DNA of 5,184 bases from a virus (Duplodnaviria > Heunggongvirae > Uroviricota > Caudoviricetes): positions 1 through 5,184 of IMG/VR virus record IMGVR_UViG_2630968808_000001. One strand, 5' to 3'. A program made the position numbers and the translations under genes. A model generated the notes under the pieces. It had not been told where the DNA came from. It made no database searches and saw only the letters and a list, made by a program, of their open reading frames with translations. The first letter of the stretch is position 1. Each line of letters opens with the position of its first letter. Below are positions 1 to 5,184 of the stretch, piece by piece.

Positions 1-1370
1 GAAACGCCGACTATATCGACTATCTGCCAGTGAATATGCTGGCTACACCCAAAGAAATCCTGAACAGCAGCGGATATCTTCGCTCATTCCCGGGCATTGC
101 CAAACGTTCTGATGTGAATGGCGTATCTCGCGGCGTCGAGTACAACATGGCGCAGAACGCTGTATATCGCGTGTGTGGTGGCAAGCTGTACAAAGGCGAA
201 AGCGAAGTCGGTGATGTTTCCGGAAGTGGTCGTGTATCAATGGCTCATGGTCGGACATCTCAGGCTGTAGGCGTTAATGGTCAACTGGTCGAGTATCGCT
301 ATGATGGTACGGTTAAAACCGTCTCAAACTGGCCTACAGACAGTGGATTCACTCAGTATGAGTTAGGTTCGGTTCGTGACATTACACGCTTACGTGGGCG
401 TTATGCGTGGTCAAAAGACGGAACTGATTCATGGTTTATCACTGACCTTGAAGACGAATCGCATCCTGACCGCTACAGCGCACAATATCGTGCCGAGTCT
501 CAGCCTGACGGCATCATCGGCATCGGAACATGGCGAGACTTCATCGTCTGCTTTGGTTCATCGACGATTGAATATTTCTCCCTGACTGGCGCAACCACCG
601 TTGGTGCCGCTTTGTATGTCGCACAGCCATCACTGATGGTGCAAAAAGGCATCGCCGGGACTTACTGCAAAACGCCGTTTGCTGATTCGTATGCGTTCAT
701 AAGCAATCCGGCAACAGGTGCGCCGTCTGTATACATCACCGGCTCCGGTCAGGTGTCACCAATCGCCAGCGCGAGCATTGAGAAAATCCTTCGCTCCTAC
801 ACTGCTGATGAACTGGCTGATGGCGTGATGGAATCGTTGCGCTTTGATGCTCATGAATTGCTGATTATCCATCTTCCGCGCCATGTTCTCGTGTACGACG
901 CATCTTCAAGCGCCAATGGTCCGCAATGGTGTGTACTGAAAACAGGCCTGTATGACGATGTGTATCGCGCTATCGACTTCATTTACGAAGGCAATCAGAT
1001 AACGTGCGGCGATAAGCTGGAATCCGTGACCGGGAAATTGCAATTCGATATCAGCAGCCAGTACGACAAGCAACAGGAACATCTGCTGTTTACTCCACTC
1101 TTCAAAGCAGATAACGCCAGAGTTTTCGACCTTGAGGTTGAATCGTCAACTGGCGTTGCGCAGTACGCTGACCGCCTGTTCCTCTCTGCAACCACTGACG
1201 GCATCAATTACGGGCGTGAGCAGATGATTGAGCAGAATGAACCGTTCGTTTACGACAAGCGCGTTTTGTGGAAGCGAGTCGGGCGCATCAGGAAAAATGT
1301 TGGCTTCAAATTGCGCGTTATCACGAAGTCACCTGTAACTCTGTCTGGCTGCCAGATAAGGATTGAGTAA
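1..1370 (+). CDS. 10: Head-completion / tail-accessory protein, P22 gp10-like; 5'-partial (reading frame open to window edge, codon phase begins at nt 3)
   Basis: Long ORF in frame 3 with no stop between nt 3 and the TAA at 1368-1370. The ORF track starts it at GTG 30, but the frame stays open upstream, so the true start lies outside the window. The 446 aa visible are consistent with the ~470-aa P22 gp10 as I recall it. Sits immediately upstream of a gp26-like needle gene, as in P22. Stop overlaps the next start (TAATG). Confidence 0.75.
1358..1362 (+). promoter_or_regulatory. Shine-Dalgarno (AAGGA) for the gp26-like gene
   Basis: AAGGA lies 7 nt upstream of ATG 1370, inside the 3' end of the gp10-like CDS. 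Confidence 0.6.
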
Positions 1371-2071
1371 TGGTTGATTCATCACTGAATGATCCTGTCG
1401 TGGTTCAGGCTACGCGCCTTGATGCTTCAATTTTGCCACGCAATATATTCAGCCAGTCTTACCTGCTGTATGTCATAAATCAGGGAGCTGATGTCGGTGC
1501 AATTGCCGGGAAGGCAAATCAGGCTGGTCAGGGCGCTTACGATGCCCAGGTAAAAAACGATGAACAGGACGTAGAACTGGCTGATCACGACGCAAGAATC
1601 ACCGCAAACACAAAAGCGATAAATCTCCTTGAGGTCAGGTTAACAACCGCCGAAGGGAAGATAGTCGTACTGCGTAGCGATGTTGATTACTTGCTGGGTG
1701 AGGTTATCGATATTCAGGGGCATCTGGTCACTGTTGACCAAATACTGGATGGCGTAGAAAGCGATGTATCTGACATTAAGAGTGATTACGTATCGAAAAC
1801 CGTAACCGAATCGCAGTCTCTTGCGTCACCGCTGGATGTAAAAACATCATATTCAGTTGATGGAATTCAGGTCGTTGGAGCAAGGCAGACCGGATGGACT
1901 GCAGCCACAGGTACGCCACTTCTTGGTTCATTCAACGCTAACCAGTCATACACGGTCGGCACTACGTACACACAATCCGAAGTCGCAGCTCTCGCTACAG
2001 GTTTGGAGCAGGCGCGGCAGCGTATTCTGGCGCTTGAAACAGCACTTAGATTACATGGGCTGATTGACTGA
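1370..2071 (+). CDS. 26: Tail needle / cell-envelope-penetrating plug protein, P22 gp26-like (233 aa)
   Basis: ATG at 1370 overlaps the upstream stop; AAGGA Shine-Dalgarno at 1358-1362. The N-terminus [25 protein letters not shown]... closely resembles the conserved N-terminal gp10-binding domain of P22-family needles as I remember it. The 233-aa length matches the P22-type needle without a C-terminal knob. The central region has a heptad-like hydrophobic periodicity typical of a trimeric coiled coil. Confidence 0.85.
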
Positions 2072-2526
2072 TGATTACATTCAAACCAACGCGAAACATC
2101 GACCTGATCGAAGCAGTCGGAAATCACCCTGACATTATTGCCGGAAGCAACAACGGTGATGGATACGACTACAAGCCTGAATGCCGTTACTTTGAGGTTA
2201 ACGTGCACGGTCAGTTCGGCGGCATTGTTTACTATCAGGAGATTCAGCCGCTTACATTCGATTGCCACGCCATGTACCTGCCCGAGATTCGCGGCTTCAG
2301 CAAGGAAATCGGGATGGCGTTCTGGCGGTACATTCTGACTAACACCACCGTTCAGTGCGTCACATCGTTCGCTGCACGCAAATTCCGCCACGGGCAGATG
2401 TACTGCGCAATGATTGGCCTTAAGCGTGTAGGAACTATCAAGAAATACTTCAAAGGCGTGGATGACGTGACGTTTTACAGCGCCACACGCGAAGAACTAA
2501 TCGACTTCCTGAATCACGGGAGATAG
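2071..2526 (+). CDS. 14: P22 gp14-like protein (151 aa), required for infectious particle formation / ejection-protein assembly in P22-like phages; exact function uncertain
   Basis: ORF begins at the ATG overlapping the gp26 stop (TGATG at 2069-2073). Assignment is by position between the needle gene and the gp7-like gene. No strong Shine-Dalgarno, so translation is probably coupled to the upstream gene. I recall P22 gp14 as somewhat longer, so the assignment is synteny-based only. Confidence 0.6.
   Translation: MITFKPTRNIDLIEAVGNHPDIIAGSNNGDGYDYKPECRYFEVNVHGQFGGIVYYQEIQPLTFDCHAMYLPEIRGFSKEIGMAFWRYILTNTTVQCVTSFAARKFRHGQMYCAMIGLKRVGTIKKYFKGVDDVTFYSATREELIDFLNHGR
2518..2522 (+). promoter_or_regulatory. 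Shine-Dalgarno (GGGAG) for the gp7-like gene
   Basis: GGGAG lies 6 nt upstream of ATG 2529. Confidence 0.6.
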
Positions 2527-2528
2527 CC

Positions 2529-3221
2529 ATGTTATATGCATTTAAACTGGGCAGAAAACTGCGCGGCGAGGAACCTTATTACCCTGAAAAAGGCGGGAAA
2601 GGTGGCAGTTCTGATAAAAGCGCAAAGTATGCCGCAGAAGCCCAGAAGTATGCCGCAGACCTGCAAAATCAGCAGTTCAACACCATCATGAATAACCTGA
2701 AGCCGTTTACTCCTCTGGCTGAGAAATATGTCGGCAGCCTCGAGAACTTATCGTCTCTGGAGGGGCAAGGTCAGGCACTTAACCAGTATTATAACTCTCA
2801 GCAGTATAAAGACCTTGCAGGTCAGGCTCGCTATCAGAGTCTGGCGGCAGCGGAAGCAACAGGTGGATTGGGTTCCACCGCAACCAGTAATCAGTTAGCA
2901 ACAATCGCACCAACGCTTGGTCAGCAATGGCTATCTGGACAAATGAACAATTACAACAACCTGGCAAATATCGGTCTTGGCGCTCTTCAGGGGCAGGCAA
3001 ACGCCGGGCAAACATATGCCAACAACATGAGTCAGATTTCACAGCAAAGCGCGGCGCTGGCGGCGGCAAACGCCAACCGACCGTCAGCATTGCAGCAGGG
3101 GGTTAGTGGTGCTGCATCCGGTGCGCTTTTGGGTGGTGGCATAGCCAGTGCTCTCGAGCTATCAACTCCGTGGGGGGCTGCGATCGGCGGCGGTCTTGGT
3201 CTGCTTGGCTCGTTGTTTTAA
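2529..3221 (+). CDS. 7: Ejection (injection/pilot) protein, P22 gp7-like (230 aa)
   Basis: ATG at 2529 preceded by GGGAG at 2518-2522. Length is nearly identical to P22 gp7 (229 aa as I recall it). Protein is Q/N/A-rich with a Gly/Ala/Leu-rich hydrophobic C-terminus. Position is immediately after the gp14-like gene. Confidence 0.8.
   Translation: MLYAFKLGRKLRGEEPYYPEKGGKGGSSDKSAKYAAEAQKYAADLQNQQFNTIMNNLKPFTPLAEKYVGSLENLSSLEGQGQALNQYYNSQQYKDLAGQARYQSLAAAEATGGLGSTATSNQLATIAPTLGQQWLSGQMNNYNNLANIGLGALQGQANAGQTYANNMSQISQQSAALAAANANRPSALQQGVSGAASGALLGGGIASALELSTPWGAAIGGGLGLLGSLF
2625..2659 (+). repeat. Perfect 14-nt direct repeat (AAGTATGCCGCAGA) in two copies at a 21-nt offset, in frame inside the gp7-like CDS
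   Basis: Copy 1 at 2625-2638 and copy 2 at 2646-2659 are identical; flanking bases differ on both sides. They encode KYAAE / KYAAD, seven codons apart. Confidence 0.9.
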
Positions 3222-3230: not shown

Positions 3231-4595
3231 ATGGCTACGTGGCAACAGGGTATTAATTCTGGTGGTTTTCTGGCTGGCATTGGTGCGCAAAACGAGAATG
3301 CGCCAAAGGCAAGCGACATTAACGCAACGCTTGGTCTGATCCGCGAAAACAATGAACTGGCTCGATCAGGTGCAAATAACGTTGGTCTGACCGCGTTACG
3401 TGGTCTGGCTGGAGTTGCTGATATTTATAAGCAGGAACAGCAACAGAAAGCTATTAGGGCGTTCAATAAGGTTCACGCTGATGCATGGGCTTCTGGTGAT
3501 CCATCGGGACTATTTAAGTTTGCCCAGGAAAATCCAGCGTTTGTTGCGCAGGCACAACAGGCGTTTTCCGGTCTTAATGAGCAGCAACGCAACGATATGG
3601 GCGATTCAGCCATGAGGGCTAACGTCGCTCTTTCTCAGGGACCGGAAGCCTACAGTAAATTCATTACTGACAACAAGGACAGGTTAAATCGCGTGGGGGC
3701 GAATGCTGACTGGATGATTCAGACAGGTATCCAGAATCCAGAGCAGCTATCACACATGCTGACTACTATGTCTCTCGGTGCGCTTGGACCAGAAAAGGCG
3801 TTTGCTGTTCAGGACAAAATGGCTGGTCGTGAGATTGACCGAGGCAGGCTGGCAGAGACAATCCGCAGCAATCAGGCTGGCGAGGCGCTAACAGCGCGTG
3901 GTCAGAATATCACGATGCGCGGTCAGGATTTATCGATGCAGAGAGCATCAATGAAAGGGTCGGTTGGGAATAATGAGCGTACAGTTCAGTTAGCAGATGG
4001 CAGAACTGTAACGGTAGGCGGGAAGCTTCACGGCGCTGGGGCTAATGCGTTCTACGAAGGTATCGACAACGAGGGGAATATGGTTCGCGTCCCTGCTGGC
4101 TCTATTGCCGCTCCGGCTACATCGGCAGCAAGCGCACAGAATTACGCAATGAAGAAAGATCTTGATGCAATTTCTGGTGCATCAATTGACGATCTTGGCT
4201 TCATGACTGGCATTACAGGCTCTTCAGGTTCTCCTGCTCTTGGTGCAGATATTCGTAGCCGTGCATCTGGTGGTGATCAGAGGAAACTATACAACGCGGC
4301 ACAGCGAATCCAAGGAAAGATGCAGAATCAGGGCATTGCAGCAGCCAGAGACATGGGGGCATCCGGTATCAACACCGTTGCAGAAGCAAAGATGTATTTT
4401 CAAGGTATGCCACAGGTTGATTTCTCAAGCCCTGAAGCACTGCAACAATCAATGCGCGACATTCAGCAATATACCGACAATTACAACCAGCAATATAACG
4501 TTAATGTTGGTAAATCTCAGCGGCAGCAATCTCAACCTGCACAGGTATCACAGCCAGCAGCCAGCAGTAACTTTTCTTCACTATGGGGTGATTAA
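3231..4595 (+). CDS. 20: Ejection (injection/pilot) protein, P22 gp20-like (454 aa)
   Basis: ATG at 3231 preceded by AAGGGG at 3220-3225 with a 5-nt spacer. Size is comparable to P22 gp20 and it sits between the gp7-like and gp16-like genes. Stop TAA at 4593-4595 overlaps the next start. Confidence 0.78.
4585..4590 (+). promoter_or_regulatory. Shine-Dalgarno-like (GGGGTG) for the gp16-like gene
   Basis: G-rich purine tract 4-6 nt upstream of ATG 4595, inside the 3' end of the gp20-like CDS. Confidence 0.45.
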
Positions 4596-5184
4596 TGGCT
4601 AAAGCATGGAAAGATGTTATCGCTTCTCCACAGTATCAGGCGTTAACTGAAGAACAGAAAGCACAGGCTCAAGCGCAATATTTTGATGAGGTTGTTGCCC
4701 CTAAGGCTGGTGACAAATGGGCTGAAGCAAGAGATCAGTTTTATGCAGCATACCCTCCGCCTCAGCAGCAGAAAGAAGAACCATCATTGATGCAACAAGC
4801 TGGTGATTGGCTCACAGGTGGTCAAAGTGCAGGGCAAATTGCAGAACAGGCTGGTCGTGGTCTGGTAAACATACCATTTGACGTATTGCAGGGTGGCGCA
4901 AGTCTGATTAATGCAATCAGTCAGGGGCTTGGTGGACCCAAGGTTTTGGATGATGTTTATCGTCCAGTAGACAGACCGACAGACCCCTACGCTCAAGCTG
5001 GAGAAACAATTGGCGGGTATTTAGTTCCAGGAGTTGGAACGGCAGGAAGCATGGCTATTGGATCACTGGCAGAGGCCGCAAATCAGAAAGGCGATTTCGC
5101 ACAAAATGCAGCTAAAAATGCCGGAGTTAACCTTGCCGCTCAGGGTGTTCTTTCCGCAGCAGCAAAGGGAATAGGGCGTGGAAT
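4595..5184 (+). CDS. 16: Ejection (injection/pilot) protein, P22 gp16-like; 3'-partial (runs off window end)
   Basis: ATG at 4595-4597 overlaps the gp20 stop (TAATG); GGGGTG Shine-Dalgarno-like at 4585-4590. Frame is open from 4595 to the window end (translation begins [42 protein letters not shown]...). Not in the supplied ORF track because it has no stop in the window. Position matches P22 gene 16. Confidence 0.78.

Follow-up and report, generated by a model that had tools for sequence, protein, structure and literature searches.

The open reading frame at positions 1370 to 2071 (plus strand) of the 5,184-nucleotide stretch of DNA analysed here, hereafter the window, is almost certainly the gene 26 homologue of a P22-like (Lederbergvirus) E. 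coli prophage, encoding a knobless tail needle of the HK620 type. The frame runs from ATG to TGA and encodes 233 residues followed by the TGA stop, on exactly the coordinates and with the length given by an earlier note on this DNA, which had read the protein as a needle of the gp26 family. That assignment is borne out by searches of several kinds. When all PDB chain sequences were searched with the protein, eight matches were returned, every one of them a tail needle. The best match was 5bu5_A (also 5bu8 and 5bvz), a chain of 233 residues that aligns from 1-233 to 1-233 with an E-value of 8.2e-135. The entries 5BU5, 5BU8 and 5BVZ are titled 'HK620 Tail Needle' in the Foldseek PDB table, and the 5bu5 chain sequence is the translation of HK620 gene 26 (NC_002730, 27934-28635, 702 nt). 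P22 gp26 was also found among the PDB matches (2poh_A, E 2.8e-81), and PHROG 1219 'tail needle protein' was matched over 1-233 of 233 (E 2.5e-112). Pfam and NCBIfam scans of the needle matched no family, and no curated model covers the protein. Its family membership therefore rests on the pairwise, PDB and PHROG matches and, as there is no curated gp26 model to be hit, the Pfam and NCBIfam blank carries no weight against it. The lack of such a model also accounts for the RefSeq names of gp26 needles, which are 'phage tail protein' or 'hypothetical protein'.

The needle is already known, down to its exact protein sequence (WP_038976898.1 in NCBI, whose cluster at 90% identity numbers 2,951 members), and a 93%-identical relative has solved crystal structures. 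The gene was matched in 420 of 5,426 complete E. coli genomes, and a wider protein search brought up 2,404 cluster representatives with E-values of 1e-5 or below. Over its full length the window shares 99.2% identity with a chromosomal prophage of E. coli strain E9 and 96% with phage phiv205-1. In the phage records PQ850609 (Huey) and PQ850600 (Dewey) the matched feature is labelled 'tail needle knob'. The Huey protein aligns over all 233 residues at 95.3% identity and so has no knob despite its label, while the Dewey record matches the 3' 41% of the needle gene only.

The needle gene sits between gene 10, encoding the tail hub, and gene 14, upstream of the ejection genes 7, 20 and 16, as is expected of a member of the family. 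The gene order in the window, 10-26-14-7-20-16, is the same in HK620 and in the E. coli E9 prophage. The genes and the putative ribosome-binding signal are as follows:

1..1370, plus strand, gene 10 homologue truncated by the start of the window, tail hub / DNA stabilisation protein; matched to positions 24-469 of 469 of Pfam profile PF11134 (Phage_stabilise), E 7e-286; frame open from nt 3
1358..1362, plus strand, Shine-Dalgarno-like AAGGA, read from the sequence, ending 7 nt upstream of the needle ATG
1370..2071, plus strand, gene 26 homologue, tail needle / portal-channel plug; open reading frame with PDB, PHROG and HK620 gp26 matches
2071..2526, plus strand, gene 14 homologue (DUF2824); Pfam PF11039, E 1e-52
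2529..3221, plus strand, ejection protein gp7 homologue; Pfam PF25688 P22_gp7, E 4e-132
3231..4595, plus strand, ejection protein gp20 homologue; Pfam PF16928 Inj_translocase, E 2e-117
4595..5184, plus strand, gene 16 homologue (ejection protein), 5' part, cut at the window end; open frame whose E9 counterpart is annotated 'P22-gp16 family phage DNA ejection protein'

The gene 10 stop codon and the needle start codon share one base (TAATG, 1368-1372), as do the needle stop and the gene 14 start (TGATG, 2069-2073). A one-base overlap like these is also present between genes 20 and 16, at 4595. The arrangement at the 10/26, 26/14 and 20/16 joints is usually taken to indicate translational coupling in a late operon. 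A scan for promoters and terminators found nothing above shuffle expectation, consistent with the needle gene lying inside a long late operon.

An intact gene could nevertheless belong to a defective prophage remnant, in which case the needle would never be built into virions. More than 100 E. coli genomes carry small P22-like remnants that include a needle gene (Leavitt et al., PMC3741392), the window is only 5.2 kb long, and the longest recorded contig with the exact protein measures 5,194 bp. However, all six reading frames of the window are open and are joined by overlaps of the translational-coupling kind, and the E9 locus, which is 99.2% identical, has its genes for scaffold, capsid, gp4 and gp10 immediately upstream. 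Near-identical needle genes are also found in the isolated plaque-forming phages HF4s, IME10 and E212, and the needles in the remnants of Leavitt et al. are of the Sf6 type (PMC3741392). A remnant whose needle is never assembled is therefore improbable.

Like that of HK620, the needle can be divided into three parts, with a conserved motif at the joint between the second and the third:

1370..1549, plus strand, predicted N-terminal virion-binding (plug) domain, residues 1-60, from identity to P22 and HK620, with the plug function taken from PMC3741392
1550..1789, plus strand, coiled-coil shaft, residues 61-140, about 11 heptads in one unbroken register, from the register and a shuffle test
1784..1792, plus strand, coiled-coil-to-beta transition ('beta-layer') motif DYVSKT, D139-Y140-V141, from conservation across homologues
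1790..2068, plus strand, P22-type (knobless) C-terminal tip, residues 141-233, HK620 subtype A, from 93/93 identities to HK620 and 61/93 to P22, with the Sf6 knob unaligned

The N-terminal 60 or so residues had been thought conserved, and they are: 51 of 60 are identical in P22 gp26, 48 of 60 in HK620 gp26 and 47 of 60 in Sf6 gp9, the Sf6 figure being a hand count from a table of residue differences. The domain also matches the 62-residue P22 gp26 chain 8eap_B (E 1.6e-29). In the shaft, the heptad register is unbroken from about residue 63 to residue 139, with L70, I77, I84, L91, I98, V105, V112, L119, L126 and V133 at the a positions and H73, N80, L87, A94, L101, L108, I115, V122, V129 and I136 at the d positions. 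Over residues 67-140, 18 a and d positions are occupied by I, L, M, V, F or Y against 10.7 +/- 1.1 in shuffled sequences, and none of 20,000 shuffles reached 18. The heptad-like spacing noticed earlier over residues 70-140 (nt 1577-1789, with residues 77-122 quoted as an example) thus holds up statistically. P22 gp26 has the same register over the same span. Shafts of the gp26 family contain 11-16 heptads, those of the P22 and Sf6 needles about 11 (PMC3741392), so that the shaft found here, at about 11, has the long heptad repeat of the family. At its end, D139 and V141 are invariant and Y140 nearly so among 43 homologues. Hartmann et al. (PMC4786415) include the P22 counterpart of DYVSKT, 133-ISALQADYVSKTAT-146, among their coiled-coil-to-beta beta-layers. 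A short C-terminal heptad stretch (V205, L208, L212, I219, L222, L226) lies within about residues 202-228, which are helical in the structural model described below, but by itself it is not significant, being reached by 3,802 of 20,000 shuffles.

With an alignment of 43 sequences, AlphaFold2 modelled the monomer at low confidence (pLDDT 66.5, pTM 0.29). The model contains helices at residues 29-86, 101-141 and 202-228, with the shaft helix broken at residues 87-100 and residues 139-190 poorly defined. A Foldseek search of the PDB with this model placed the HK620 and P22 needles first (E 8e-17 to 3e-08), the next match having an E-value of 2.7. TM-scores to the crystal chains were 0.26-0.34, and are low because the modelled monomer folds back on itself. 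A chain able to fold only as a trimer would be expected to give a poor monomer model. The predicted fold is consistent with the needle assignment and adds nothing to the sequence evidence.

HK620 gp26 (NP_112083.1; 5BU5, 5BU8, 5BVZ) is the closest of the structurally characterised needles, with 216 of 233 residues identical (93%) in a gapless BLASTP alignment of two proteins that are both 233 residues long. Its gene occupies the same place, between genes 10 and 14. By segment, in addition to the 48 of 60 N-terminal identities, 75 of 80 residues are shared in the shaft (61-140) and 93 of 93 in the tip (141-233). The 17 substitutions comprise 12 in residues 1-51 and five in the shaft. The latter, T78, L86, G110, G117 and I125, fall at heptad positions b, c, f, f and g respectively, and none lies in the a/d core.

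P22-like needles are split into an Sf6 type, which carries a TNF-like knob, and a P22 type (Leavitt et al., PMC3741392). The P22-type tip has itself been divided by sequence into eleven subtypes, with HK620 as the type of A and P22 as that of C (PMC3741392). The tip encoded in the window is homologous to P22 residues 141-233 and closest to that of HK620, which places it in subtype A, in contrast to the subtype C tip of P22. On sequence grounds the window needle is therefore classed as P22-type, subtype A and knobless. The Sf6 gp9 and HS1 needles (3RWN, 4K6B) have the homologous N-terminal domain, identical at the 47 of 60 positions given above for Sf6, and a coiled-coil shaft. The 282-residue Sf6 gp9 differs in bearing a TNF-like knob, residues 140-282, that binds L-glutamate and has no counterpart in the window needle. 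BLASTP against Sf6 gp9 gave 75 of 148 identical positions (51%) with 7 gap columns, and the alignment ends at query residue 141, leaving the knob unmatched. Likewise, PHROG 1030 'tail needle knob' matched only residues 1-122, on profile positions 1-89 of 268. The apparent absence of a C-terminal knob reported in the earlier note is thus upheld, but its grouping of HK620 with Sf6 as knob-bearing was mistaken, since the knob 'is lacking in P22 and HK620' (Broeker et al., PMC6024685) and HK620 gene 26 is 702 nt long and encodes 233 residues.

P22 gp26 (YP_063715.1; 2POH, 3C9I) shares with the window needle its family, the 233-residue length, the three-part architecture, the DYVSKT transition and the HGLID end. 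Were the protein a strict P22-type needle, with shaft and tip essentially those of P22 gp26, the equal length, the 51 of 60 N-terminal identities and the similarity over the full length (BLASTP, E 2e-102) would all be accounted for. The alignments rule this out, and we give it practically no chance: only 153 of 247 columns are identical, 28 are gap columns forming two 14-residue gaps, the shaft is identical in 40 of 94 aligned columns and the tip in 61 of 93, against 75 of 80 and 93 of 93 for HK620, and nucleotide identity to P22 drops to 8-33% in several 60-nt intervals of the shaft. A damaged gene for an Sf6/HS1-type needle that has lost its knob, which the alignment of the N-terminal 141 residues to Sf6 gp9 at 51% identity and the PHROG 1030 match to residues 1-122 might suggest, has a negligible likelihood too, and a truncated or knobbed Sf6-type needle is ruled out, because residues 141-233 are all present and make up an entire P22-type tip, the same as in HK620, which is a functional phage, the protein ends in the conserved HGLID of the family, and gene 14 follows directly at the usual 1-nt overlap.

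For an HK620-type needle, the equal length of the P22 protein calls for explanation. P22 gp26 has 14 extra residues after residue 77, KQLRIDVDDHESRI, and the window needle has 14 extra at about residues 110-123. The shared length of 233 residues therefore results from two offsetting two-heptad indels and, as each indel amounts to two heptads, both the register and the heptad number (about 11) are kept. The exact match in length to the short P22 type, on which the earlier note had relied, is real but does not amount to sequence identity, given the 14-residue gap in each protein. The note had also raised the question of whether the middle and C-terminal segments are P22-identical or a recombinant variant, and had proposed pairwise alignment to P22 gp26 and Sf6 gp9. 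The alignment to P22 gp26, with 153 identities over the full length, shows that the segments are not P22-identical. The gene is instead of the HK620 type, and about 150 nt at its 5' end form a divergent patch shared with other coliphages:

1370..1522, plus strand, mosaic patch, divergent allele of the first 51 codons, from nucleotide identity to HK620

Nucleotide identity to HK620 is 68.0% over 1370-1522 but 97.8% over 1523-2071 and 96.7% over the final 300 nt of gene 10. Compared with the window, phage HF4s shows 95.4% identity over the patch and the E. coli E9 prophage 100%, so the combination of this patch with an HK620-type remainder is common. The HF4s, IME10 and E212 needles are 96-97% identical to the window needle at the protein level, and these three, together with phiv205-1 and E9 (WP_097479258.1), have the same divergent 5' patch and an HK620-type shaft and tip, with few point substitutions. 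Judged from these identities, 1370-1522 is a sharply bounded case of short-patch recombination (about 150 nt) inside a conserved domain. Despite a nucleotide divergence of 32% from HK620, only 12 of the 51 residues are changed, a sign of purifying selection in the patch and of a strongly constrained N-terminal domain.

Further mosaicism is suggested downstream of this gene and, in a relative, at its 3' end. Megablast matches of related phages end inside genes 20 and 16 of the window: those of E212 and EC.P3 stop at about 3770, those of HF4s and vB_EcoP-683R2 at about 4700, and those of HK620 and CUS-3 at about 5020. These match ends suggest mosaic joints in the ejection-protein genes. The needle gene of Salmonella phage UPF_BP1 (1501-2202) has a P22-like shaft, while its last 150 nt or so are 95-98% identical to the window and hence encode an HK620 subtype-A tip. 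Subtype A was confined to E. coli phages according to Leavitt et al. in 2013 (PMC3741392), so this 3' end in a Salmonella phage indicates that the tip domain is itself mosaic and has crossed host genus. Three protein variants were also encountered. P0001 (299 aa, from a single 41.7 kb Logan contig) is a near-identical needle in which the final HGLID is replaced by 71 unrelated residues, which probably reflects either disruption of a prophage gene or a join made in assembly. P0020 (240 aa) is a shaft length variant with one extra heptad (DVGNLQT repeated). P0047 (243 aa) is another, with a 10-residue tandem duplication (ADVSALDGRV twice) which, not being a multiple of seven, should shift the coiled-coil register.

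In P22, a single trimer of gp26 extends from the middle of the tail, and its N-terminal end plugs the exit channel made by gp4 and gp10; without gp26 the packaged DNA leaks (PMC3741392, PMC6024685). The distal tip is thought to touch the outer membrane after O-antigen cleavage by the tailspikes, gp26 is missing from virions after DNA ejection, and changes to the tip alter ejection kinetics while host specificity is unaffected (PMC3741392, PMC6024685). Since the window needle is 93% identical to that of HK620 and its gene context is conserved, it is by far the most likely that the same mechanism would apply to it. By analogy with P22 gp26, three chains would form one thin coiled-coil fibre, a trimer being expected also from the 93% identity to the HK620 needle structure. 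After DNA packaging, the N-terminal end would enter the gp10 tail hub and plug the exit channel, so that the genome would stay in the head. At the other end, the tip would project past the tailspikes and reach the outer membrane after they have cut the O-antigen. Departure of the needle from the virion would then open the channel, through which the DNA and the ejection proteins gp7, gp20 and gp16 could pass.

The allele in the window has some residues of its own. V2, D8 and V12 are allele-specific residues in an otherwise very conserved plug domain. The E9 needle gene differs by a single nucleotide, at 1698 in codon 110, so that E9 has D110 where the window has G110. This is a surface f position of the coiled coil at which HK620, HF4s and phiv205-1 all have aspartate, as does every close relative examined; the protein with G110 is nevertheless on record as WP_038976898.1. 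Mutations in the tip of P22 gp26 slow potassium release. It is very unlikely, in our estimate, that V2, D8, V12 and G110 make plug stability or DNA-ejection kinetics measurably different from those of the HK620 needle.

The needle gene is a routine structural gene of a very common E. coli prophage group, and its identification in one more such prophage matters little. Its analysis mends a typological error, in that HK620 needles are without a knob, and traces the equal 233-residue length of the P22 and HK620 needles to two compensating two-heptad indels. With its divergent patch, the gene is also a clear example of short-patch mosaicism under strong conservation at the protein level.
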